From: Pseudomonadota bacterium
GTDB taxonomy: Bacteria; Pseudomonadota; Gammaproteobacteria; Burkholderiales; JALYOK01
NCBI GenBank assembly: GCA_031406045.1
Contig: JANOGO010000279.1
Coordinates: 1 to 36,582, forward strand
Direction of reading: 5' to 3'
Length of the DNA stretch: 36,582 bases
The notes beneath the pieces were generated by a model, which ran no database searches, had not been told where the DNA came from, and worked only from the letters and a program-made list of their open reading frames with translations. The translations under genes and the position numbers were made by a program. Positions 6,582 through 36,582 of the stretch are shown piece by piece (positions within the stretch are counted from its first letter, which is position 1; each line of letters starts with the position of its first letter).

Positions 6582-9044
6582 TTATTCGTTGCTACGTGAG
6601 CGGGTGCGTTTCGCCTCAACACGCTGAGGTTCGTCCGACCACTTAACCAGCGCTATAAACAACATCAAATAGAACAACACGGCGACGCGGGGAAATTCGA
6701 ACAGACTATTAAACGTGCCGACTGTAACGAAGCCAGCGAGCGATACCAGCATTGCAAGGGCGATGAGTTGTCCGCGGCTGACTAGCATCAATAAGCGGCA
6801 CGCTGCATAAATAATCAGGGTGACCAGCAAAATTAATCCAAGCCAGCCTTGCTCAAAAAAAGTATGTACCCAAATACTTTCGATATGCCACGGCCAGAAA
6901 TTACTCACAGAAAATAACCAGTGGTCGCCGCCTTGGCTGAATTCGCCGTTTTTCAGCAAATTATTGCCGCTGACATCGGTCAAGCGAACATTATCGATAT
7001 CGATATGGGTTCCGCCGATCGGGTTGACCAGCCAGGCCTGTACCGGTTTTTTGCCGAAGCGATGCCATGCTCCCAAATTACGGCTTTGGAACGGTATTTC
7101 CAAGCGTTGCCATGAACCGTCATTCTTTTGCAGTGGCAAAATTTTGGTTTCGCAATTTTCCGAGTACAACAACAACGATTCGCATAGGCCGGCTTGCACC
7201 CGCGCCTTCGAAAAAGTCGTGCGCACATCGAATGAAAACATCAGACTGCGATATGGCTCGGGGTTGATGCGCTGTGCGTAATATAGCGTCACGCCGCCGA
7301 GACTATCGTGGGTACCGCCGACGCGAAGGAAGGTATTGCCCGGTTCGTCCATCAGGGTAAATGTTCCAGGGGGCGTGGTGCGGGGGCTGCGCCAGAAAAA
7401 TAAACTAGGAAAGCGGCCGACGCCCATGCCAAAAAATTGTGTGACGAGGGTGCTATCCATCATGTTCAGCGTATCTTGCCAATGCACCATACGGTCGCGA
7501 ACCGCACCGGAGCGATCGGAAAACCGCGCGCTGACAAAATAAGAATTGCCGGCAATGGGCACGCTCATGAAAAATATCAGGCTGACGAACGCGAGCATCG
7601 AGGCGTGCGGAACATTGGGCCGCCACAACGGCCGTTTCACCATTCGATTCAGGCTTACCAGCACCAGCACGAACACCACGGCGCTCAACGCTGCCCACAT
7701 CGCTGGCATCCCGCCCCAGTGCTTGCCGACGAATGGCGTCACTACGGCGGTTGCAAGAAATCCCGACCACGCCATACGATGTTTCGACGCGCGGGGTTTC
7801 AGGACGGTCAGCGCGACACCGATAAAACCGATCAAAAAAGTAATCGCATAGGCGATATACACGCCTTTTGCGAAGAACTGAATCAACACGAAGCTCGCGA
7901 TAATTAACGCAATCGCGAGCGCAATTCCAACCGCACCACCACCGCGAACCTCAGCTTTACGTCCCAAGAAAAAGCTTAACGCCATAAATCCCAATATTGC
8001 CGCGAGCGAGCGATAACCGCCGGATGCAAAAACGGCAAAGCACAGCACGCTCATCAGAATAACCGTTACGACCACCAGTAAGGCGCGTCTCGTGCTGAAA
8101 ACGCCGGTCGCTTTCTGCCGAACCATTGCGCCGAAGGCCAACATGAAGATCATCACGATGCAGGCGACATAGAGGCCGCGTGAGAAAGTCACCATGATGG
8201 TGTAGCTGCCCAACGCTAACAGCGCCGCCGCCGCGAACACTTTTATCAGCGGCCGCTGTTCGCTTAACCAAAGCAACGTGAACGGCAACGCCAGCGCCAG
8301 ATAACCGTCAATCGCGCCGCCGCCGACATGCATGGACCCAAAGGTCGATGTGACGCGATAATTTTCGGAAAAATTCGTCAGGCCGGGGAAGGCGATACGT
8401 TCCCAAATAGCAACACACACCACGCCGGCCAGACCCGCCAATATGCCGGGAACCCAATAATTCGACAGCGCTTTGGCGTTGCTCCCTAGATCGGCTCGCA
8501 CAAGGAATAAAAATGCGATCGCCCACGCCAAGCTCTTGCCGACGCGAAATCCGTTGTACCGGCTGTAGTAGTTGGCGAAGGCATTGCTATCTATTGGCTC
8601 TAGGGGCGCTACGCCAATCACAGTGCTGATAATGAAAACGACAACAAAGGTGGAAATGAGAAACGCCGCCGCCGGCGCCAGCCGTGCCGGCCGGCCGCCA
8701 CCGCTGCGCAGCGATCCGATTGCGACGGTGACGAGGAAAAAAAGATCGACCTCGTCGAAAAAAAAACGACCCGACCACGGCGCTAAATTCAGAGCGGGCG
8801 CAAGCGCCGGAACAAAAAACAGCCACAGTCGCGGTTCTCGCCAGAGGATCGCGGCGTAACCGATCAAGGCGACAACGAGTAAGAGCGGAAAGATTGGAAA
8901 GCGATACGCACCATAAGCCGCGACGGCGATCAACGCCGCCGCGAGCGGCGCGGCCCAGATCAGGCGGGAAAACTTAACGGGTTGGTGAGCGATACCGTTT
9001 TCGACCGGCGGCATAGCTCGATTTCCCAGTGAAAATTTACGCAA
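6582..9044 (-). CDS. Large polytopic Wzy/O-antigen-ligase-like membrane protein with an embedded soluble beta-rich domain
   Basis: The 820-aa ORF has many hydrophobic helices and a Wzy_C-like stretch (IMVTFSRGLYVACIVMIF). A hydrophilic segment of about 230 aa (roughly nt 6810-7502) contains IDIDNVRLTDVSGNNLLKNGEFSQGGDHW, which looks like a carbohydrate-binding module, ahead of the last helices. The track start at 9044 is TTG; an ATG at 9014 is an alternative. Confidence 0.7.
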   Translation of the reverse strand: MRKFSLGNRAMPPVENGIAHQPVKFSRLIWAAPLAAALIAVAAYGAYRFPIFPLLLVVALIGYAAILWREPRLWLFFVPALAPALNLAPWSGRFFFDEVDLFFLVTVAIGSLRSGGGRPARLAPAAAFLISTFVVVFIISTVIGVAPLEPIDSNAFANYYSRYNGFRVGKSLAWAIAFLFLVRADLGSNAKALSNYWVPGILAGLAGVVCVAIWERIAFPGLTNFSENYRVTSTFGSMHVGGGAIDGYLALALPFTLLWLSEQRPLIKVFAAAALLALGSYTIMVTFSRGLYVACIVMIFMLAFGAMVRQKATGVFSTRRALLVVVTVILMSVLCFAVFASGGYRSLAAILGFMALSFFLGRKAEVRGGGAVGIALAIALIIASFVLIQFFAKGVYIAYAITFLIGFIGVALTVLKPRASKHRMAWSGFLATAVVTPFVGKHWGGMPAMWAALSAVVFVLVLVSLNRMVKRPLWRPNVPHASMLAFVSLIFFMSVPIAGNSYFVSARFSDRSGAVRDRMVHWQDTLNMMDSTLVTQFFGMGVGRFPSLFFWRSPRTTPPGTFTLMDEPGNTFLRVGGTHDSLGGVTLYYAQRINPEPYRSLMFSFDVRTTFSKARVQAGLCESLLLYSENCETKILPLQKNDGSWQRLEIPFQSRNLGAWHRFGKKPVQAWLVNPIGGTHIDIDNVRLTDVSGNNLLKNGEFSQGGDHWLFSVSNFWPWHIESIWVHTFFEQGWLGLILLVTLIIYAACRLLMLVSRGQLIALAMLVSLAGFVTVGTFNSLFEFPRVAVLFYLMLFIALVKWSDEPQRVEAKRTRSRSNE

Positions 9045-10222: not shown

Positions 10223-11818
10223 ATGGGTGAATTAATTCACGATTTAATTGCTGCTTCGGCTCGGCGCGCGCCGAATAGAGCGGCTTTAGTTTATCAAAAA
10301 CAATCTGTTACATTTACGGGGCTGGATAGTGCCGTCAGCGCGGCAGCGCAGCTTTTCCTGGGCCATGGGTTAAAAAAATCTGAGCGGGTTGCGACGTTTA
10401 TTGAGAAGCGGGTTGAGAATATCGTCGGTATGTTTGGCGCCGCCCGAGCCGGCGGCGTGTTCGTGCCGATCAATCCGCTGCTCAAGGGCGAACAAGTCGT
10501 TTACATCATGAATGACTGCAACGTTCGGGTGCTCGTGACCTCGTTGGATCGCCTAAAGTTGTTAGCGCCATACGTTAAAAACTGTCCCGATTTGCGAGCG
10601 GTAATCGTCGTAGATCGCGGCAGTAACGTCATGCCTGAATTCGCCAACTTAACCGTAATTGAATGGGAAAATGGATTGGCCACAGCGCCAAGCCAGCAAT
10701 GCCATCGCGTAATCGACGGCGACATGGCGGCGATTCTGTACACATCCGGTAGCACCGGCAAGCCCAAAGGCGTCGTTTTATCACACCGGAATATCGTTGC
10801 CGGTGCGAAAAGCGTTGCGCAATACTTAGAGTTGACGTCCGACGATCGCATTTTGTCGGTATTGCCGCTGTCGTTCGATTACGGATTCAATCAGCTCACG
10901 ACGGCGTTTTTGGTCGGCGCAACGGCGGTCTTGATGAACTATTTATTCCCTCGCGACGTGATCAAAGCGGTTGCGGAGGAAAAAATAACTGGGCTCGCCG
11001 CCGTTCCGCCGCTGTGGGTGCAGCTTGCGCAGTTGCCGTGGCCGCAAGCCGTTGTCGACCATCTGCGCTACATCACCAATTCCGGCGGGCATATGCCCGA
11101 GCCTACGCTTAAGGCGTTGCGCCAAGCATTACCGAAAACTACACCTTTCCTGATGTATGGCCTGACCGAGGCATTCCGCTCGACTTACCTGCCGCCCGAT
11201 CAAGTCGAAAAACGGCCTGATTCGATCGGCAAAGCCATTCCCAACGCAGAAATTTTAGTGGTGCGCGAAGACGGTACGGAATGCGCCGCGGACGAGCCGG
11301 GCGAATTAGTGCATCGCGGCGTTCATGTTTCCCTCGGCTACTGGAATGATGTTGAAAAAACCGCCGAGCGCTTTAAGCCAGCGCCCGGCCAACTCAGCGG
11401 GTTGGTGATGCCGGAAATGGCCGTTTGGTCCGGCGACACGGTTAAACGTGATAGCGAAGGTTTTTTATATTTCATCAGCCGCCGCGACGAAATGATCAAA
11501 ACCTCGGGATATCGCGTCAGCCCAACGGAAGTGGAGGAGGTGATTTACGCAACGGGATTGGTCAGCGAGGTAGCGGCGTTCGGCGTTGCCCATCCCACGC
11601 TTGGTCAAGCAATTGTCGTGGTTGTGATGCCTAAACTATCCCAGCAAATGTCGCCGGAGGCGCTGCTCGCAGCGGCCAAATCGGAATTACCGGCCTTCAT
11701 GGTGCCGCATAAAATCATTGTCAGCACGGAAAGTTTACCGCGTAATCCGAATGGGAAAATCGATCGAAAAGCCTTAGCCCAAGGCGCACAAGATCTTTAT
11801 GAAGCTGCCAAGGCATGA
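10223..11818 (+). CDS. Acyl-CoA ligase (AMP-forming), exosortase A system-associated type
   Basis: The 531-aa ORF has the adenylate-forming motifs ILYTSGSTGKPKGVVLSHRN, GYRVSPTEVEE and PRNPNGKIDRKAL. It is adjacent to its usual PLP decarboxylase partner. Confidence 0.88.
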   Translation: MGELIHDLIAASARRAPNRAALVYQKQSVTFTGLDSAVSAAAQLFLGHGLKKSERVATFIEKRVENIVGMFGAARAGGVFVPINPLLKGEQVVYIMNDCNVRVLVTSLDRLKLLAPYVKNCPDLRAVIVVDRGSNVMPEFANLTVIEWENGLATAPSQQCHRVIDGDMAAILYTSGSTGKPKGVVLSHRNIVAGAKSVAQYLELTSDDRILSVLPLSFDYGFNQLTTAFLVGATAVLMNYLFPRDVIKAVAEEKITGLAAVPPLWVQLAQLPWPQAVVDHLRYITNSGGHMPEPTLKALRQALPKTTPFLMYGLTEAFRSTYLPPDQVEKRPDSIGKAIPNAEILVVREDGTECAADEPGELVHRGVHVSLGYWNDVEKTAERFKPAPGQLSGLVMPEMAVWSGDTVKRDSEGFLYFISRRDEMIKTSGYRVSPTEVEEVIYATGLVSEVAAFGVAHPTLGQAIVVVVMPKLSQQMSPEALLAAAKSELPAFMVPHKIIVSTESLPRNPNGKIDRKALAQGAQDLYEAAKA

Positions 11819-13050
11819 GCACAAATAAGCCAAGCCACGCGCCACGCAATCATTGGCGCAGCGAAAACGGCTGCTTGCAAGTCAATGGCGTTGCACTGAC
11901 GCGCCTGGCGGCGCGTGTCGGGCAAACGCCGTTTTTCGCCTACGATCGCGAGCTATTGCGCGAGCGAGTAGCGCTATTACGTCAGCACATTCCAGCCGAT
12001 ATTCATTTGCATTACGCAATGAAAGCGAACCCGATGCCGGCCGTGGTGCAATTCATGGCGCGTTTGGTAGACGGTTTGGATGTTGCCTCCGGGAATGAAC
12101 TACGCGTTGCGTTAGATTCCGGCATGAATCCGGAACTGATCAGCTTTGCCGGTCCGGGCAAAAGTGAGCGCGAGTTGACGTCGGCAATTGCGGCGGGCAT
12201 TACGATTAATTTGGAATCGCCCCACGAGATGGAAACCGCAGCGAAGTTGGGCGTGGCGCTGAATATTCGTCCGCGCGTGGCGGTGCGTGTGAATCCTGAT
12301 TACGAGCTCAAATCGTCCGGTATGAAAATGGGCGGCGGACCCAAGCAATTCGGTATCGATGCCGAGATGGTTCCCGAAACCCTCACGCGGATGAAATCCT
12401 TACCGATCGATTTTCAGGGATTTCATATCTATAGCGGATCGCAAAATCTGCGCGCTGAATCGATTCAAGAAGCGCAGGAAAAAACTTTAGAGCTAGCGTA
12501 TCGACTATCCGAGTACGCGCCGACGGCCGTGCGCCTGCTGAATATCGGCGGCGGCTTCGGCATTCCGTATTTTCCCGGCGAAACGCCGCTGGATATCGCT
12601 GCGGTGGGTGACAATTTGCGTCGATTAATGCCCGAGGCTAAGCGTCGTTTCCCGCACGCTCAATTGGTGATCGAATTGGGTCGTTATCTAGTGGGCGAAG
12701 CGGGAATTTACGTGTGCAAAATTATAGATCGCAAGATTTCCCGTGGTCATGTTTTTCTCGTGACCGACGGCGGCTTGCATCATCAGCTTGCGGCTTCCGG
12801 AAACTTCGGTCAGGTGATACGAAAAAATTATCCGGTCGCGATCGGCAATCGCATGAACGAAACACCGTCAGAAACCGCCTCGGTGGTGGGGCCGCTTTGC
12901 ACTCCGCTTGATTTGCTCGGCGACAAGATGGAATTTCCGCATGCGGAAATCGGCGATTTGGCCGTCGTGTTTCAGTCGGGTGCGTATGGGCTGACCGCCA
13001 GCCCGACGGCGTTTTTAAGTCATCCGGCACCGCTCGAAGTATTAGTCTAA
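11815..13050 (+). CDS. Pyridoxal-dependent decarboxylase (Orn/DAP/Arg decarboxylase fold type III), exosortase A system-associated type
   Basis: The 411-aa ORF has the PLP-lysine motif HYAMKANP, plus GGGFGIPY, ELGRYLVGEAG, GPLCTPLD and SGAYG. Its start overlaps the ligase stop as ATGA. Confidence 0.88.
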   Translation: MSTNKPSHAPRNHWRSENGCLQVNGVALTRLAARVGQTPFFAYDRELLRERVALLRQHIPADIHLHYAMKANPMPAVVQFMARLVDGLDVASGNELRVALDSGMNPELISFAGPGKSERELTSAIAAGITINLESPHEMETAAKLGVALNIRPRVAVRVNPDYELKSSGMKMGGGPKQFGIDAEMVPETLTRMKSLPIDFQGFHIYSGSQNLRAESIQEAQEKTLELAYRLSEYAPTAVRLLNIGGGFGIPYFPGETPLDIAAVGDNLRRLMPEAKRRFPHAQLVIELGRYLVGEAGIYVCKIIDRKISRGHVFLVTDGGLHHQLAASGNFGQVIRKNYPVAIGNRMNETPSETASVVGPLCTPLDLLGDKMEFPHAEIGDLAVVFQSGAYGLTASPTAFLSHPAPLEVLV

Positions 13051-13077
13051 ATAACGCATATATGCAGGGAGAACGGC

Positions 13078-14916
13078 TTGGCCGGAATTTGTGGTTGGCT
13101 CAATAACACGGCGAGTGCATCGCCACCGAATTTGGAGTTGATGGCAAACGCGTTAGTGCGATTCGATGGTGCTCGCCCGCAATCGTTGTCCGAACCATGG
13201 TGCGGTCTGACGGCCGCTGATTTGGGCGCCGCTCAATTTCTGATTGAAGAAGGCCATTTGCTGATCGGTTTTTCCGGCGCGCCAAATTTCGCGAATCGCG
13301 AACTGAACGACCTCGCCGCTGCGCGTGGCCGCGGCACGGCGTTGGCCGAGGCCTATCGGCGCTGGAAAGACGATCTGGCTATTCACCTGTTGGGCCAATA
13401 TTCGGTCGCGATCATCGACCAAAACGAGCAATCGCTTTATCTTGCAGTCGATCGTTTTGTGACCCATCCATTGGCCTACGCGTTGGAATCGAGCGGTATC
13501 CGTTTTGCGTCTAACCTTGATTCGTTGAACATCGAGCAAGGTTTGCAACTGAGTCCGCAATCGATTTTCAACTACGTTTATTTTCACGTTATTCCCGGGC
13601 CGGGAACGATTTACCGCGACGTCAAGCGCTTGCTAGCAGGCGAATCTTTGAGTTTCAAAAACGGTCAAGCCGAACCGCGGCGCTATTGGCGGCCGGAGTT
13701 TATTGAAAATCAACATTCATCGTTCGACGAACTTAAACAGGATTTTCTCGGCGCTTTACGCGCTGCGGTAAAGAGCACATCGGACGGTCACAATTGCGGC
13801 GCGTTCTTAAGCGGCGGCACCGATAGCTCGACCATCGCCGGCTTGCTCGGCGAGGTCTCCGGCGCTTCGGCGCGAACCTATTCGATCGGATTTGAAGCGA
13901 CGGGCTACGACGAAATGGATTACGCTCGTCTGGCTGCAAAGCATTTTAAAACGGACCATCACGAATATTATGTAACGCCCGCCGACGTGGCGGAAGCGAT
14001 ACCGAAAATTGCGCAGGTTTACGATCAACCATTCGGTAATTCCTCGGCCGTCCCGACGTATTTTTGCGCGCGCTTCGCCAAACAAGACGGCATTGATTTG
14101 CTGCTAGGTGGCGACGGTGGCGACGAACTTTATGGCGGTAATGAGCGCTATGCGAAGCAGCATGTTTTTGCGCACTATGCGCGGGTCCCAGGCGTGATCC
14201 GTTCGGTGTTGATCGAGCCGTTAATGGCAATGCCTGGCGTCGACAGTATCATGCCGTTACGCAAGGCCAAGAGCTATCTGCAGCAGGCAAAAATATCGAT
14301 GCCGGCACGGATGGAAACCTATAACTTACTCGATCGCTTTGGTGTCAGCAAAGTCCTTGCGCCGGAATTTCTCGCAACCGTTCAAACCGATGCGCCGCTG
14401 CGGCATTTAACCGATGTTTATAACGACGCTCACGCGCGTACTTTAATCAATCGCATGTTGGCGCTTGATTTCAAATTGACGCTGAGCGACAACGATTTGC
14501 CGAAGGTTTCGCGGATGTGCGAATTGGCGCAAGTGAATGTCGCCTATCCGATGTTGGACGATGGCGTACTAGATTTTTCATTGCGGCTCGCGCCCGGCTT
14601 GAAATTGAAGGGTACTAAGCTGCGTTATTTTTTCAAAGAAGCGCTGCGCGGATTTTTGCCGGATGCGATTCTTACGAAGTCGAAACACGGCTTTGGATTG
14701 CCGTTCGGCCCTTGGCTTCGCGATCACGCGCCGTTACAGCAAATTGCCTATGGCAGTCTTGAACAACTCGGCGATCGTGGCATTATTCGCAAGGAATTTA
14801 CCCGCGAACTGATCGACGTCGTGCGCTCGGGGCATGCCGGTTACTATGGAACAATGGTATGGGTGCTAATGATGTTGGAGCTTTGGCTCTCCCATCACCA
14901 GCCGGCAAAAGGTTAA
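13078..14916 (+). CDS. Asparagine synthetase (AsnB)-like amidotransferase with a non-canonical N-terminus
   Basis: The 612-aa ORF has the PP-loop AFLSGGTDSSTIAGLL and a GATase-II-like N-domain. It uses a TTG start with an AGGGAGA Shine-Dalgarno 5 nt upstream. The N-terminus is MAGICGW, so Cys is residue 5 and not residue 2. Confidence 0.85.
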   Translation: MAGICGWLNNTASASPPNLELMANALVRFDGARPQSLSEPWCGLTAADLGAAQFLIEEGHLLIGFSGAPNFANRELNDLAAARGRGTALAEAYRRWKDDLAIHLLGQYSVAIIDQNEQSLYLAVDRFVTHPLAYALESSGIRFASNLDSLNIEQGLQLSPQSIFNYVYFHVIPGPGTIYRDVKRLLAGESLSFKNGQAEPRRYWRPEFIENQHSSFDELKQDFLGALRAAVKSTSDGHNCGAFLSGGTDSSTIAGLLGEVSGASARTYSIGFEATGYDEMDYARLAAKHFKTDHHEYYVTPADVAEAIPKIAQVYDQPFGNSSAVPTYFCARFAKQDGIDLLLGGDGGDELYGGNERYAKQHVFAHYARVPGVIRSVLIEPLMAMPGVDSIMPLRKAKSYLQQAKISMPARMETYNLLDRFGVSKVLAPEFLATVQTDAPLRHLTDVYNDAHARTLINRMLALDFKLTLSDNDLPKVSRMCELAQVNVAYPMLDDGVLDFSLRLAPGLKLKGTKLRYFFKEALRGFLPDAILTKSKHGFGLPFGPWLRDHAPLQQIAYGSLEQLGDRGIIRKEFTRELIDVVRSGHAGYYGTMVWVLMMLELWLSHHQPAKG

Positions 14917-16017: not shown

Positions 16018-18225
16018 TTATCGCTCGAAGGCGCCAAGATCCAAGCGCTTGTTGATTTTCCGTGGCATGGATTGCAGTGGGTGGACATACTGAAATGTTG
16101 GTGTCAGGCTGACGCTATTGGCCTGTCCCGCGTCGATGCCGGCGTCGACGGCTTTGGAGTCATGTCGTAATCGGTAGTCGTAATGATCGGGCGCGACGAA
16201 TTCCGATTTGTCGATAGCCAAATTATTTTTCAATTCGCCCGGTCCTTCGAGCAATTTCCCGGGGCCGGCAAAGAGATTATTCACAATTTTTGCGATTTTT
16301 GTTCCGGACTGAATGCGGATAAACCGGCCTTCTTTTGGGCCGTCGTTAATCACCGAATTGCTCGCGAAGTAGAATTCATGGCTGCCTTTTTTAAGCCCTT
16401 CTTCACCGTAGGAGACGATCGTGTTGTTCTCAGTTTTTGGGCTTTGTTGAATGACATTGCCGACCAGATAGGCGAGCCCGCCGTCCGGTAAATTGATCTC
16501 GTAGCTTGCCGTACCGTCGACTTCATCGACGAATCGATTATAAAAAATTTGATTAGTCATCGCGCGGCTTTTCAAATTGTGGCCGATTTTTGCGTGATGC
16601 AGATTACTAAATTTAACCGTCAGACTACGCACCCGCCCAACGTAAATATTATGCGATTGCCCGTCGCCATAACCATTGTGGGCGAATTCACTATGCTCGA
16701 TCACAATATCGCTGTCCTCGTTTACGCCGGTAAGAATGCCATTTTCGTTATGGTGAAAATAGCAGTTGCGGATCGTTAGATTTTTTCCTTCGAGGCGAAT
16801 ACCCGCGCCGTTTCGATCCGGCACTTTGGCGCCGGAGAATTCGATATGTTCCAGTATCGTATTGGTGCCGCGAATAATCCACGTTCCCTTTCCAGCAACA
16901 TTAACGCCTTTCGCATTGATATGCGCACGTCCGCCGACAGCGCGAATGGTTAAATTATTTTGTGGCCAAATCGCTGCATCACTTGAGTATTCGCCGGCAT
17001 CGATTTGGATGGTCTGTCCATCCTTAGCCACCAGCGCGGCCTCGCTTGGCCGGTGAAATTTATGACCCGGACCGATACATAAATCGGCCTCGCATTTTCT
17101 TGTGGTTTCTTTGAAGTCCGCTGCCGGAAGCTTGTAGACCCAGGTGTTGTCGCCGGCGTGGTTATAACCGATGAACAGGTCATAATTGGCAACATATTGC
17201 CAACGGCTGTAGATCCCCGCCGATTTAACGTCGCCGTTCGATCGCAACGGAAATGGCGCATCGCCGGTGGAGTTTTCAAATTTTCTGACCTGCCAATCGT
17301 TGGTACTGAATGCCCACACGTTTCTCCCGCCACCCCACATCACCATGCGCTTACTCGGCGGATGATAAGCCATCCCGGAACCGCTCGGCCAATCGATCGC
17401 GCCGGCAGCGAGCGCTTTTCGCCGCTTACTTAATTTTTCCAGGGAATAAAAATAAATTTCTTTAAGCGAGGTCCTCAATTGCACGAAAATCCGCTGTTCG
17501 GGATCGATAACGCCCGCGGCGGTGGCGATGGAAGGATCGAGTTGCGGGTGCAGCTTCCATGTATCCGCAGCGGGATCGTAAGTCATCAAGCCGGTGCCGG
17601 TACCGATGATGATTTGACCGGTCACAGGATCAAAATCGGAATTGACCTGCAACACATAGGTCGGCGCCTCCGATGCACGCTTCCAATTTTTTGTCGCGAG
17701 ATCGAATAAATAAGCGTGAAGATCGTACGGGCTACCGTTGCCGTAAAAGCTCCCGCCGAATTTGAACATTTGGTTCTGCGCCGGAAGATAAACTAGACCA
17801 TCGTAGGTATGGCTGGAAACCGGCGCCTCCGAATCGACTACTGAATACTCGCCTGGCCTAGTACTCTTGACCATCTTGCTCGGTTCGGTGGTGCGCTGCC
17901 AGCGGGGTGGATTTAAGCTGAATTCATATACCTCGTTCCCGCCGTAGTCGCTGTGGCCACCGCCGGTGACGATTAACACATTTCGTTTTGTGTCGAACGC
18001 TGCGCCGCCCCACGCCGCGACAACGCCGCGCGGCCCGATGACTCCCCATGCCGGATGATTCGATTCAGCAGGGAAGACTTCACGCATCGCCGTGTTCGGA
18101 ATTTCACGCCATTCACCCGGCTTCAGCGAAGTAAAAAGTTCATCGTTTGCAACAGCAATCGTGCTTGCAAACAAAGTGCCCAATCCGATCAAAATGCATC
18201 TAAGCATGGCGAACTTTGGCTGCAT
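16018..18225 (-). CDS. Secreted two-domain protein: Kelch-like beta-propeller plus right-handed parallel beta-helix (pectate-lyase fold)
   Basis: The 735-aa ORF has a signal peptide (MLRCILIGLGTLFASTIAVA/ND) and a repetitive N-terminal half with GG...W Kelch-like blades. The C-terminal half has beta-helix repeats (NLTIRAVGG, GIRLEGKNLTIRNCYFHHNENGILTG, IEHSEFAHNGYGDGQSHNIYVG, HHAKIGHNLKSRA). An alternative start at 18207 is possible. Confidence 0.75.
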   Translation of the reverse strand: MQPKFAMLRCILIGLGTLFASTIAVANDELFTSLKPGEWREIPNTAMREVFPAESNHPAWGVIGPRGVVAAWGGAAFDTKRNVLIVTGGGHSDYGGNEVYEFSLNPPRWQRTTEPSKMVKSTRPGEYSVVDSEAPVSSHTYDGLVYLPAQNQMFKFGGSFYGNGSPYDLHAYLFDLATKNWKRASEAPTYVLQVNSDFDPVTGQIIIGTGTGLMTYDPAADTWKLHPQLDPSIATAAGVIDPEQRIFVQLRTSLKEIYFYSLEKLSKRRKALAAGAIDWPSGSGMAYHPPSKRMVMWGGGRNVWAFSTNDWQVRKFENSTGDAPFPLRSNGDVKSAGIYSRWQYVANYDLFIGYNHAGDNTWVYKLPAADFKETTRKCEADLCIGPGHKFHRPSEAALVAKDGQTIQIDAGEYSSDAAIWPQNNLTIRAVGGRAHINAKGVNVAGKGTWIIRGTNTILEHIEFSGAKVPDRNGAGIRLEGKNLTIRNCYFHHNENGILTGVNEDSDIVIEHSEFAHNGYGDGQSHNIYVGRVRSLTVKFSNLHHAKIGHNLKSRAMTNQIFYNRFVDEVDGTASYEINLPDGGLAYLVGNVIQQSPKTENNTIVSYGEEGLKKGSHEFYFASNSVINDGPKEGRFIRIQSGTKIAKIVNNLFAGPGKLLEGPGELKNNLAIDKSEFVAPDHYDYRLRHDSKAVDAGIDAGQANSVSLTPTFQYVHPLQSMPRKINKRLDLGAFER

Positions 18226-33986: not shown

Positions 33987-34625
33987 TTAGAACCAGCTTT
34001 CTGGAATCACCAGTACATCGCCCGGACGCATTTCAACGTTCGCCGAGATATCGCCTTCTTTAATCAAATCTTCGAGGCGCACAGAAAACTGCCGGCTTTT
34101 ACCATTCACCGCACGTAGAATGCTTGCGCTGTTGCCGTTGGCAAATTCGGTTAGGCCGCCGACCGCAATCAGAACATCAAGCAAAGTCATGCGCTCTTTG
34201 TATGGTAAGGCTTGCGGTTTTGCTGCCTGGCCAACAACGCGAATTTGCTCGCTGAAGGGTCCGGCAAAATTCGTCACCATGACCGAAACGATGGGGTCTT
34301 GAATATATTTCGACAATGCTTTTTCGATATCGCGAGCCAGTTGGCTGGTAGTCTTGCCGCTGGCGTGGATATCTTCGACCAGCGGCGTGGTGAATTTTCC
34401 GTCCGGCCGTACCGGAACAGTGGTCGAAACCTCCGGATTGCGCCACACCACGATATTTAAAACGTCTCCCGGGCCAACTAAATAGTCCGTCCCGGCAGCC
34501 GAGTCGGCGCGCGCCGGCGCTAATGGATGTCCCTGCTGAAATGCGCAGCCCGCGAACAAAAAAGCCATAAAAAACGCTACAATCGGAGCAAGTTTAAGTG
34601 GGGATTTAGACTTAAGCGCTTTCAC
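33987..34625 (-). CDS. epsE: Wza-like polysaccharide export outer-membrane lipoprotein, EpsE type
   Basis: The Poly_export motif is YLVGPGDVLNIVVW. The lipobox LFAGC lies in VKALKSKSPLKLAPIVAFFMAFLFAGC. I prefer the GTG start at 34625 (GGAG 9 nt upstream). The track ORF extends to the ATG at 34691. Confidence 0.85.
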   Translation of the reverse strand: MKALKSKSPLKLAPIVAFFMAFLFAGCAFQQGHPLAPARADSAAGTDYLVGPGDVLNIVVWRNPEVSTTVPVRPDGKFTTPLVEDIHASGKTTSQLARDIEKALSKYIQDPIVSVMVTNFAGPFSEQIRVVGQAAKPQALPYKERMTLLDVLIAVGGLTEFANGNSASILRAVNGKSRQFSVRLEDLIKEGDISANVEMRPGDVLVIPESWF

Positions 34626-34712
34626 CAGGGGTTCTCCGGAGAGTTGATTAGAAGACTGCCGAATTTGAATTTTACGCAAATTTTGATGCATTTTCGGGGC
34701 AGCACACAGTCA

Positions 34713-34740
34713 AATTTAGCGTAAACACGCGCATTGTCAA
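34713..34740 (-). promoter_or_regulatory. Candidate sigma70 promoter of the EPS operon
   Basis: On the minus strand the sequence reads TTGACA (34740-34735), a 16-nt spacer, then TAAATT (34718-34713). It lies upstream of epsE. Confidence 0.3.
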
Positions 34741-34966
34741 CCCTTTAGCCTTTTAGCCGCAAGTGTTTTTTGTCGACTCGGGTTTTTCGTAAGCGCTCAA
34801 ACCTTTTCTTTACAACCGTGTACACGAGAATTAAAATGAAGAGTATTAGAAAACGTTGTATCCTGTTTAAAATTAGTGCAAAAGCTAGATAAAACCTAAA
34901 TTAGCCCCGATCAACGCAAAACGGTCAGCTGTTTGGCGTTAAATTGGGACCTCGAGCTGCTTCCAT

Positions 34967-35764
34967 GTGACCTCGATACTAAGGCTGGGTCAAAAAATGG
35001 TCATTTCATCAAAGAAAAACGAGTTGTCCGGCGACACCATTATTCGGGTGCCGTTAGGCTTTCGGGCCGCCGGACCACTCATGCAGGAAAGGCCTGATGT
35101 TGCCGATACCCTTGAGCATGTTGTGGATCGTAAAGAGTTCAAAATACGGCTAGCCGACACCCACGGCCAGCGCAGTTCCGCGAGCATGCTGATCAAGAAA
35201 ATGTATTCTTGGCGCGGCTATCAGACGGCGTTTAACGCTGAAGAGCAGCCCAATCGCATGACGCTGGTTGCGTCCAGTGACGATCAAACCATCGGCACCA
35301 TAACGATTGGTTTCGACTCGCCGATTGGTCTGTTGGCCGACGATCTTTACCAAGTCGAACTCAACGCGTTGCGTTCCCAAGGGCGGCGCCTCTGCGAATT
35401 CACCAAACTCGCCGTCGACGGCGAAATCAAATCCAAGCAAGTGTTGGCGGCTCTGTTTCATATCGCCTTTATTTATTCCTTCGATATCCAGAAATTCACC
35501 GATTTGCTAATCGAAGTAAATCCGCGCCATGTTAAATACTACGAGCGCATGCTCGGTTTTGCCGGTTGGGCCGAAACCCGAATGAATCGCCGCGTCAATG
35601 CGCCGGCCGTATTGCTGCGCTTGGAACTGGATTACGTCCGCGCTCAGATTAATCGATTCGGTGGCAAGCCCGAATCGGCCAGTTCGGAAAAATCGCTGTA
35701 TCCGTTCGCATTTTCGCAAGGTGAAGCGGTTGGAATTTCAAATCGCCTGGCACACCTGAGTTAA
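34967..35764 (+). CDS. N-acyl amino acid synthase (FeeM/LuxI-like GNAT), PEP-CTERM/exosortase system-associated type
   Basis: The 265-aa ORF (GTG at 34967; alternative ATG at 34997) contains CEFTKLAVDGE...LIEVNPRHVKYYERMLGF...VNAPAVLLRL, which resembles the FeeM-type N-acyl amino acid synthase core. It diverges from the eps operon. Confidence 0.78.
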   Translation: MTSILRLGQKMVISSKKNELSGDTIIRVPLGFRAAGPLMQERPDVADTLEHVVDRKEFKIRLADTHGQRSSASMLIKKMYSWRGYQTAFNAEEQPNRMTLVASSDDQTIGTITIGFDSPIGLLADDLYQVELNALRSQGRRLCEFTKLAVDGEIKSKQVLAALFHIAFIYSFDIQKFTDLLIEVNPRHVKYYERMLGFAGWAETRMNRRVNAPAVLLRLELDYVRAQINRFGGKPESASSEKSLYPFAFSQGEAVGISNRLAHLS

Positions 35765-35810
35765 CCCAATTCCTATTGCCCCCGAAAGTCGCAGGCCACG
35801 GAGTGAGTAA

Positions 35811-36582
35811 ATGATCAGATGTAAGCGCTGCCTTTTGCCAGGAACGGCTCCAGGCGCGGATCTTGACGGCGCCGGTACATGCGGATATTGCCGCACTTAT
35901 AAGCCGGTCGACGCCCGAGTGTCGGAAACGCTGCGTAAGGCGCGCGAAACCGATCTGGAGCGTGCCATCACTGAGAGCCGCGGGCAGGGCGAATACGATT
36001 GTTTGGTGTGCTTAAGCGGCGGCAAAGACAGCGTCTATTTGCTGCACAAACTCAAAAAAGAGTATGGCCTGCGAGTGTTGGCGTACACCACCGATATCGA
36101 TATCGGTGAAATCGCCTGGAACAACATTCACCGCTGCGTCGAAAAACTCGATGTCGAACACGTTGTCTACACGCCGGAAAAGGAATTTTATCGCCGGCTG
36201 TTCCGCTATTTGCTGAAAAACCAAGAGGAACGCGGCGCCGTCCATACCGTATCGTATGTTTATGCACCGTTATTCGAAGGCAACGCGATTAAGCTCGCGG
36301 TGCAAAAAGGTATCCCGCTGATTTTGGCCGGCTATTCGCCCGGCCAGCCCGATCCGGAGCGCATGGAATATGAATTTCCACCGCTCGCCATTTCCGAAGT
36401 CGATTGGACGCCGCCGGAATTGAAGGCAAGCGGCGAATTCGACGAGGCCGATTTGCTACGCTTTTGGAATCCCAATCGCTATCCCGCCGGGACCAAAATG
36501 CCGCGCTATATCGCGCCGTTTCACGCCTGGGAATACAACCAAGACACGATCATGAAAAAAGTGGTCGAACTCGGGCTGATCG
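35811..36582 (+). CDS. PP-loop ATP-pyrophosphatase with N-terminal zinc ribbon (N-acetyl sugar amidotransferase/WbpG-like); 3'-partial
   Basis: This ORF is not in the track because it runs off the window. ATG at 35811 with GGAG about 8 nt upstream. The translation is MIRCKRCLLPG...CGYCRTY (CxxC...CxxC) followed by the PP-loop CLVCLSGGKDSVYLLHKL. The frame stays open to the window end (257 codons). Confidence 0.8.
   Translation, partial: MIRCKRCLLPGTAPGADLDGAGTCGYCRTYKPVDARVSETLRKARETDLERAITESRGQGEYDCLVCLSGGKDSVYLLHKLKKEYGLRVLAYTTDIDIGEIAWNNIHRCVEKLDVEHVVYTPEKEFYRRLFRYLLKNQEERGAVHTVSYVYAPLFEGNAIKLAVQKGIPLILAGYSPGQPDPERMEYEFPPLAISEVDWTPPELKASGEFDEADLLRFWNPNRYPAGTKMPRYIAPFHAWEYNQDTIMKKVVELGLI

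Follow-up and report, generated by a model that had tools for sequence, protein, structure and literature searches.

The operon and its surroundings

We analysed a 36,582-nucleotide stretch of DNA from a Burkholderiales bacterium (contig JANOGO010000279.1), referred to here as the window, and describe the operon that begins near its right-hand end. The operon is headed by a gene for a FeeM-type synthase of N-acyl amino acids (NAS), followed by a gene for a PP-loop ATP pyrophosphatase in which the window ends, and it lies divergent from an exopolysaccharide (EPS) operon. A complete exosortase A (XrtA) exopolysaccharide locus fills the rest of the window. On contigs that encode an identical NAS the operon continues with genes for an AMP-forming ligase and a thioester reductase, which together with the PP-loop gene are referred to below as the trio. 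The features at this end of the window are listed in Table 1, and related loci are cited by number (L001 and so on) where they need to be told apart.

Table 1. Genes and candidate control elements at the right-hand end of the window.
Feature	Position	Strand	Basis or remark
FeeM-type NAS gene, 255 amino acids	34997..35764	+	PF21926, 2G0B match, 2679 homologues
N-acetyl-sugar-amidotransferase-like PP-loop ATP pyrophosphatase gene	35811..36582	+	first 257 of 370 codons in window
XrtA/PEP-CTERM exopolysaccharide export gene (epsE of the sequence-only reading), heads divergent EPS operon	33987..34625	-	TIGR03027
sigma70-like promoter candidate, EPS export operon, TTGACA-16-TAAATT	34713..34740	-	consensus scan, 10/12 matches
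conserved block between promoter candidates, CCCTTTAGCCTTTTAGCCGCAAGTGTTTTTTGTC, with TTTAGCC repeat	34741..34778	unstranded	near-invariant in 7 loci
sigma70-like promoter candidate, NAS operon, TTTACA-17-TAAAAT	34809..34837	+	consensus scan, 10/12 matches
conserved 5' leader upstream of NAS start, including GTG 34967 and AAGG ribosome-binding site	34953..34996	+	

The synthase belongs to the FeeM family

The longest open reading frame (ORF) for the synthase runs from 34967 to 35764 on the forward strand, ends in TAA, and would encode 265 amino acids (aa) if read from its GTG. It holds KLAVDGE and EVNPRHVKYYERMLGF, and the motif VNPRHVKYYERMLGF is read alongside KLAVDGE. An earlier annotation made from the letters alone, here called the sequence-only reading, had described a 265-aa FeeM/LuxI-like protein; the ORF and its motifs are in place, although the true start is ATG 34997. 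This is the start chosen by gene callers in four independent assemblies, the NAS homologues are 255–256 aa long, and when seven related loci are aligned, the segment separating GTG 34967 from ATG 34997 contains indels whose lengths are not multiples of three. GTG 34967 was therefore dropped as the start.

The protein matches PF21926, where the cut-off is 27 bits, with 176.7 bits (E=3.6e-52; model positions 2–158 of 158) and the FeeM structure (PDB 2G0B) with E=3.9e-12. Its Glu134 (codon 35396–35398) aligns with the catalytic glutamate of FeeM, with ...RRLCEFTKLAV... set against ...KKLAEVVQFAM... in 2G0B; this residue is Glu95 in FeeM and Glu103 in Nas354, and the Glu103 mutant of Nas354 is inactive (PMC4897644). 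The FeeM/LuxI-like character given in the sequence-only reading is supported by these matches. At the level of family and fold the first gene thus encodes a FeeM/LuxI-fold NAS, with N-acylation as its predicted activity.

The same reading had placed the synthase in a family confined to genomes with PEP-CTERM/exosortase systems, a description that belongs to TIGR03694, the PEP-CTERM/exosortase system-associated acyltransferases. The window NAS has no match to TIGR03694 at E≤0.01 (model cut-off 111.95 bits), and TIGR03694 members from L059 and L088, used as positive controls in the same library, score 219.7 and 226.8 bits. BLASTP comparison with the L059 member is not significant (E=0.37), and only a CE(F/I)xxLAV motif is held in common. 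Hidden Markov model and BLASTP searches thus rule out a TIGR03694 identity; synthases of that type are also tied to PEP-CTERM/exosortase systems, but they form a different GNAT family. Members of the FeeM family are also known away from any exosortase context, as in the fee cluster and Nas343/354. The export gene adjoins NAS in the window and in L005–L011, L015 and L100, and PEP-CTERM genes are present in five of the six loci that carry more distant orthologues.

A PP-loop enzyme related to N-acetyl-sugar amidotransferases

The second ORF starts at ATG 35811, 46 nucleotides (nt) past the NAS stop, with a GGAG Shine-Dalgarno sequence ahead of it. It is truncated by the end of the window after 257 codons and is complete, at 370 aa, on the contigs with an identical NAS. 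Its zinc-ribbon cysteines lie in CKRC (residues 4–7; 35820–35831) and CGYC (residues 24–27; 35880–35891), with G22-T preceding C24, and the PP-loop motif SGGKDS occupies residues 69–74 (36015–36032). The spacing and the CxxC...CxxC plus SGGKDS motifs are as the sequence-only reading had given them. N-acetyl-sugar amidotransferases (NASATs) carry a signature of a tetracysteine motif, CXXCXn[GN]XCXXC, together with SGGXDS (PMC10607449). The window protein has this signature, and the motif residues are invariant or nearly so in 20 orthologues.

The full 370-aa protein matches TIGR03573 with 120.3 bits (E=1.2e-34), and no Pfam domain scores above threshold in it. It matches the Legionella NASAT structure 8WEX with E=7e-8 by sequence and E=1.5e-11 by profile, at 20% identity. 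An AlphaFold2 model (pLDDT 83.9, pTM 0.84) has 8WEX as its best Foldseek match over its full length (E=1.6e-12, TMq 0.61, 393 columns); other PP-loop enzymes align with the Rossmann core of the model only, at TM ~0.3. The protein is a sub-threshold relative of the N-acetyl-sugar amidotransferases.

The orthologues form a tight group (mean column identity 76% among 20 members) for which there is no dedicated Pfam or NCBIfam model, and the window protein is ~70% identical to those of Rubrivivax and Aquincola. A library-wide search recovered 114 clusters (50% identity) at E≤1e-30, grading to ~30% identity.

The operon has four genes

The sequence-only reading held that more operon members might follow past the end of the window, and extension of the sequence through contigs encoding identical proteins recovered two. 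NAS proteins identical to that of the window are encoded in four independent assemblies (contigs L001–L003 among them), and in all four the order is NAS, the 370-aa PP-loop protein, a 589-aa ligase and a 374-aa reductase. The genes are closely packed, with the 46 nt between NAS and PP-loop followed by 15 nt between PP-loop and ligase and an 8-nt overlap between ligase and reductase. The 589-aa enzyme is an AMP-binding protein (PF00501) resembling FadD11, and its nearest solved structures are FadD5, FadD13 and oxalate-CoA ligase. The 374-aa enzyme is a short-chain dehydrogenase/reductase (SDR) of the NAD_binding_4/TIGR01746-like type (146 bits to TIGR01746 against a cut-off of 213) that also resembles PRK07201. 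Its nearest solved structure is 4U7W (E=1.4e-29), the terminal reductase domain of the non-ribosomal peptide synthetase (NRPS) MxaA, which we take to release an amino alcohol. The pairing of an adenylating enzyme with an NAD_binding_4 reductase, which supplies both catalytic functions required for reducing a carboxylate through a thioester, is the same as in carboxylic acid reductases and in the terminal reductases of NRPS and polyketide synthase systems such as MxaA. In the window operon, by contrast, each is a protein of its own, and neither a carrier-protein domain nor a carrier-protein gene lies close by.

The order NAS, PP-loop and ligase is kept in six related loci from metagenome-assembled genomes (MAGs) of Burkholderiales (L005–L010). 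The reductase gene comes next in all five that reach far enough (L006–L010), and after it a convergent PEP-CTERM substrate gene. The operon is thus bracketed by genes of the XrtA system, with the export operon on one side and a PEP-CTERM gene on the other.

Compared with L002, the six MAG loci encode NAS and PP-loop proteins that are 83–89% identical, ligases that are 58–72% identical and reductases that are 66–75% identical. The L001 assembly is otherwise identical to the window and has DUF6932 and helix-turn-helix genes after the reductase instead of the PEP-CTERM gene of the related MAGs. Its reductase (13696–14535, compared with 13705–14829 in L002) has an internal deletion that removes residues ~199–330 and shortens the protein from 374 to 279 aa, either because the strains differ or because of an error in assembly.

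Distribution of the trio and its coupling to NAS genes

We surveyed 80 metagenomic loci centred on PP-loop orthologues, with neighbours mapped by tblastn; 23 of these have at least 4.5 kb of downstream sequence, 48 have at least 1 kb upstream, and 27 are at least 8 kb long (the long loci). Ligase and reductase genes lie downstream of the PP-loop gene and in the same direction in 21 of the 23 loci, and are rearranged in the other two. In 14 of 48 loci the PP-loop gene is directly preceded by a NAS gene on the same strand, at gaps of 46–260 nt, and 17 of the 27 long loci have a NAS gene somewhere. These synthases are of three kinds: a short FeeM-type like that of the window, a long FeeM-type, and the TIGR03694-type. 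The long proteins (433–529 aa) are 25% identical to the window NAS, and the TIGR03694-type proteins have no significant pairwise similarity to it. In L059 and L088 the gene directly upstream of the PP-loop orthologue encodes a TIGR03694 member, and L088 has two kinds of NAS in tandem.

Since a genome carries few NAS genes among thousands, the chance of such adjacency is perhaps 1% per locus; this is a rough estimate and not a computed value. Non-orthologous replacement among the three kinds of NAS argues for a functional link between NAS and the trio. The occurrence of PP-loop orthologues behind three types of NAS also lends comparative support to the suggestion of the sequence-only reading that the adjacent adenylating enzyme acts on the NAS product.

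The long synthases of L030 (1481–2782), L019 (8281–9870) and L021 (2195–3538), encoded immediately ahead of PP-loop orthologues, have an N-terminal FeeM domain (E ~1e-45) and a C-terminal half of ~200 residues with no family match. NAS enzymes with a PilZ-like C-terminal domain have been reported by Thies et al. (PMC4897644).

True PEP-CTERM tails are encoded in 17 of the 27 long loci. Other common neighbours are MacB-type ABC/FtsX, LolA-like TP_0789 and DUF1302 genes, EryCIII/MGT-type glycosyltransferases and a FAD_binding_4 oxidase. This GlcD-like oxidase is present in 16 of the 27 long loci, often between the PP-loop and reductase genes (in L018, for example, at 11270–12904), and is absent from the operon of the window.

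The trio is also found in two cultured strains. In Rubrivivax gelatinosus IL144 (L016; AP012320.1, 365535–376131) the trio stands beside ABC/FtsX/LolA-like genes, an EryCIII-type glycosyltransferase gene and a PEP-CTERM gene. In Aquincola sp. S2 (L018) it stands beside genes for PrsK/PrsR, a PrsT-like tetratricopeptide repeat protein, MMPL and DUF1302 proteins, and the gene that diverges from the PP-loop gene encodes a 328-aa protein with a PEP-CTERM tail at its end.

These neighbourhoods bear on a conventional explanation of the PP-loop enzyme, namely that it is an ordinary NASAT making an acetamidino sugar for the XrtA-linked EPS, with the NAS serving a separate function and merely lying next to it. 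The best family and structure matches, TIGR03573 and 8WEX, are to such enzymes, and the zinc motif, the SGGXDS motif and the overall fold (TM 0.61) are common to WbpG, WbuX, LpNASAT (8WEX) and the window protein. Among the proteins encoded in the window are also polysaccharide deacetylases and enzymes (WecB, TviB-like and TviC-like) for N-acetylated amino-sugar precursors. The resemblance is distant, however, at 120 against 203 bits and 20% identity to 8WEX, and the setting differs from that of known NASATs. WbpG/WbuX loci typically include an ammonia-supplying HisH/HisF-like pair. No GATase or His_biosynth genes were found in the Pfam-annotated loci L001, L002 and L016–L018, so that a partner of this kind is missing there, as is an O-antigen context for the window enzyme. 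Its constant partners are instead of the lipid type: a fatty-acyl-CoA-ligase-like enzyme and a thioester reductase are invariant, and what either would do in sugar amidination is not obvious. In R. gelatinosus, moreover, the trio lies away from EPS genes and beside lipid-export-type ABC/LolA-like genes. We consider the sugar explanation decidedly unlikely.

Relation to acyl-oxazolone and other NAS pathways

A FeeM-fold NAS beside ATP-dependent tailoring genes is likewise found in OxzA/OxzB of Pseudoalteromonas rubra and in TyzABC and TrzAS of Mycobacterium tuberculosis. In the OxzAB/Tyz route a NAS makes N-acyl-tyrosine, -phenylalanine or -tryptophan, a ThiF protein cyclises this with ATP, and a flavin enzyme desaturates the product to give an acyl-oxazolone (PMC10404671, PMC12856293, bioRxiv 10.1101/2020.06.11.147165). 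An ATP-dependent enzyme thus tailors the NAS product there (PMC10404671), a precedent for the action on the NAS product that was suggested for the adjacent adenylating enzyme. Unlike these systems, the window clade carries neither ThiF nor nitroreductase in its operon, and has the PP-loop enzyme, AMP-forming ligase and thioester reductase instead. Because the tailoring set differs, an oxazolone is not the expected product.

A contig search with the single NAS protein returned close relatives only, and more distant contexts were reached by exact-protein look-ups. The distant orthologues are 54–63% identical to the window NAS, and in five of their six loci (L013, L014, L015, L100 and L101) the next genes encode ThiF and nitroreductase-like partners, fused or split, which match the Rv1355c family. 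The 989-residue model PRK14852 is matched in its N-terminal part by the window NAS and in its later part by the ThiF-nitroreductase protein of L013. In two of the six loci (L015 and L100) the NAS gene is again divergent from an XrtA export gene.

These Oxz-like clusters lie among PEP-CTERM genes (L013, 10001–15253; L100, 8001–15124; L015, 10001–20071; L101, 4378–12019; L014, 10001–12836), and those of L015 and L100 are directly beside the XrtA export operon. The papers on oxazolones make no reference to PEP-CTERM or exosortase, and in Betaproteobacteria-type genomes acyl-oxazolones may thus belong to the exosortase system. A class-III aminotransferase gene is divergent from the FeeM-type NAS gene in L014 (8509–9822) and L099 (6508–7833). 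L099 resembles a degenerate form of the L014 arrangement, with short unassigned ORFs in place of the ThiF and nitroreductase genes.

FeeM itself, the N-acyl tyrosine synthase of the fee cluster from environmental DNA, shares PF21926 and the catalytic glutamate with the window NAS, and is likewise the first enzyme of a multi-gene lipid pathway. The match between the two is weak (E=3.9e-12), the partner genes are other ones, and no acyl carrier protein (ACP) gene is adjacent in the window operon.

A proposed pathway

What the genes encode, at the level of family and fold, how the operon is built and which neighbourhoods are conserved are direct observations. We propose from them that the four genes form one pathway that tailors the NAS product, an N-acyl amino acid lipid, and is tied to the XrtA system, a reading for which and against which we see about equal weight. 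In this pathway the NAS would move a fatty acyl chain from acyl-ACP or acyl-CoA onto an amino acid, probably an aromatic one by analogy with FeeM, OxzA and TyzA. The AMP-forming ligase would activate a carboxylate as a thioester, either that of the N-acyl amino acid, which we favour, or that of the fatty acid for the NAS step. The MxaA-like reductase could convert the thioester to an N-acyl amino aldehyde or alcohol, and the PP-loop enzyme, if it works as NASATs do, would adenylate the amide (or carboxyl) oxygen and swap in nitrogen to give an amidine or amide. The tailored lipoamino acid might play in the XrtA/PEP-CTERM matrix system the role that acyl-oxazolones, which occupy the same genomic slot in sister lineages, would play in theirs. 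We have much less confidence in any specific product structure than in the single pathway.

A bolder and in our estimation improbable version is that the trio constitutes an undescribed pathway in which nitrogen-modified lipids of a new class are made from N-acyl amino acids and work within the exosortase A system. As an example, reduction of the carboxylate to an aldehyde and conversion of the amide to an amidine could be followed by cyclisation, giving a head group of the 2-alkyl-imidazole type that would be to nitrogen what the acyl-oxazolones are to oxygen. Such a lipid might be what XrtA joins cleaved PEP-CTERM proteins to, as their acceptor or anchor, or it might organise the matrix after export by the neighbouring MacB/LolA-like transporters.

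Several points weigh against a single pathway. No NAS is present in 10 of the 27 long PP-loop loci, the trio has no NAS within 10 kb in R. gelatinosus IL144 or Aquincola sp. S2, and the trio is absent from all six of the more distant NAS orthologue loci; the coupling is thus not obligatory. The NAS and the trio could each have been recruited separately to the XrtA neighbourhood, giving adjacency without a common pathway. The PP-loop protein falls below the TIGR03573 (WbuX/WbpG) cut-off, at 120.3 against 203.2 bits, and according to the NASAT structure paper little is known of the function of that family (PMC10607449). No convincing carrier-protein gene was found near the ligase and reductase in any of 101 loci, and the substrate of the reductase is therefore uncertain. 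The sequencing runs that contain the window sequence are DNA metagenomes of freshwater sediment only. We infer every chemical step, every substrate and the link to XrtA function.

The same distribution suits another account, in which the trio is a self-contained fatty-acid route, proceeding through acyl-CoA to a fatty aldehyde or alcohol with an added nitrogen step. The NAS would then make an unmodified N-acyl amino acid and share with the trio only its co-regulation in the XrtA regulon. R. gelatinosus, Aquincola and the 10 long loci have the trio with no NAS close to it, the ligase resembles long-chain fatty-acid CoA ligases, the reductase is also like acyl-CoA reductase-type SDRs (PRK07201), and 16 of 27 long loci add the FAD_binding_4 oxidase to the set. 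Without a common pathway, however, it is hard to explain why three unrelated or distant types of NAS lie directly upstream of the PP-loop gene in 14 of 48 loci, and the closest solved relative of the reductase is an NRPS terminal reductase that acts on an aminoacyl thioester. We regard the fatty-acid route as rather doubtful.

Parts of this picture are already known: the association of NAS with exosortases (Craig, Cherry and Brady 2011, J Bacteriol 193:5707, as indicated by its title and by the citing papers PMC4897644 and PMC11072679), a NAS knockout phenotype in Methylomonas, and ATP-dependent tailoring of NAS products. The PP-loop/ligase/reductase trio is undescribed in the curated libraries and in the PEP-CTERM, floc-formation and oxazolone literature that was searched. 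Its pairing with three types of NAS and the Oxz-like clusters in PEP-CTERM neighbourhoods are likewise undescribed in curated libraries or the searchable literature.

Many environmental and floc-forming bacteria carry exosortase/PEP-CTERM systems, and two questions about them have been open since 2006–2011: to what target XrtA attaches its substrates, and why NAS genes travel with exosortase loci. The NAS of the window is not alone, heading an operon with three probable tailoring enzymes, and the trio recurs with three kinds of NAS beside PEP-CTERM and lipid-export genes. The locus thus yields a concrete set of four genes, with R. gelatinosus IL144 and Aquincola species as culturable hosts of the trio. 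It also joins two literatures that do not cite each other, those of acyl-oxazolone biosynthesis and of PEP-CTERM/exosortase systems. If the single-pathway proposal is right, one branch of the poorly characterised NASAT family would have a non-sugar substrate.

The divergent control region

The minus-strand neighbour of the operon is a TIGR03027 export protein (244 bits against a cut-off of 180; Pfam Poly_export plus SLBB), which agrees with the earlier placement of both genes on the strand opposite epsE. The likely start of the export gene is GTG 34625, giving the 212 aa called on L001 and L002; GGAG lies 8 nt ahead of this GTG, and conservation fades further upstream, where the longest ORF extends to 34691. 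With the likely starts (GTG 34625 and ATG 34997) the intergenic distance is 371 bp. The 275 bp of the sequence-only reading is only the gap between the longest ORFs (34692–34966).

Two predicted promoters stand back to back in this interval and are conserved in all seven aligned loci. The minus-strand candidate sits in the most conserved intergenic block, and both hexamers of the plus-strand candidate are kept in all seven. The block at 34741..34778 is a candidate site for a shared regulator, a role suggested by its conservation and position. "Shared control region" is thus a reasonable description, with promoter function predicted. The leader at 34953..34996 is conserved as nucleotides, yet its indels are not multiples of three; it has no Rfam match at E≤1 that would indicate an RNA element. 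A sigma54-like TGGCGT-N-TTGG seen by eye at ~34933–34950 was dropped, as it falls in a non-conserved part of the intergenic region.

The sequence-only reading had suggested that the NAS may make a lipoamino-acid signal or membrane lipid that controls or primes the XrtA system. The divergent arrangement could suit the signal version, in which the NAS product is diffusible, akin to acyl-homoserine lactones, and acts as a regulator of the divergent eps promoter. FeeM shares its fold with LuxI, FeeM and BjaI are cited as the closest structures of TyzA (PMC10404671), and the back-to-back promoter candidates have a conserved block between them. In Methylomonas LW13, knockout of a PEP-CTERM-associated NAS abolished a polysaccharide band (PMC11072679). 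This phenotype, together with the N-acyl aromatic amino acids made by FeeM-type enzymes, leaves the earlier statement that product and role are unknown partly outdated. The LW13 enzyme, however, is annotated as a PEP-CTERM/exosortase-system NAS, which we take to mean TIGR03694, and its phenotype fits a signal or a structural role alike. There is no LuxR-type or other receptor gene in or beside the operon, and the MacB-type ABC, LolA-like and DUF1302 genes of related loci point, in our reading, as much to a lipid delivered to the envelope as to a released signal. A signalling role is very unlikely in our view.

The XrtA locus of the window

Genes in the window score above the cut-offs of TIGR03109, 03027, 03007, 03018, 03016, 03015, 03006, 03019, 03087, 03088, 03108, 03098 and 03099. 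They include a chain-length determinant, a tyrosine kinase, the TIGR03016 outer-membrane protein, an ATPase and WecB, as well as a deacetylase, a FemAB-like protein, the stp1 and stp2 glycosyltransferases, an XrtA-EpsI fusion and the XrtA amidotransferase. No PEP-CTERM substrate gene was found inside the window, where the sole pattern match is a spurious antisense ORF. The large minus-strand ORFs at 6582–9044 and 16018–18225 (820 and 735 aa), both within the EPS locus, match no NCBIfam model at E≤1e-3.

A second lipid/amino-acid module lies on the plus strand at 10223–14916. It encodes an exosortase-A-associated acyl-CoA ligase (808 bits to TIGR03098), a pyridoxal phosphate-dependent decarboxylase (626 bits to TIGR03099) and an asparagine-synthase-like protein of 612 aa. 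The last of these aligns to TIGR03108 from model position 103 only (285 bits, below cut-off) and may be a form without the N-terminal glutaminase part.

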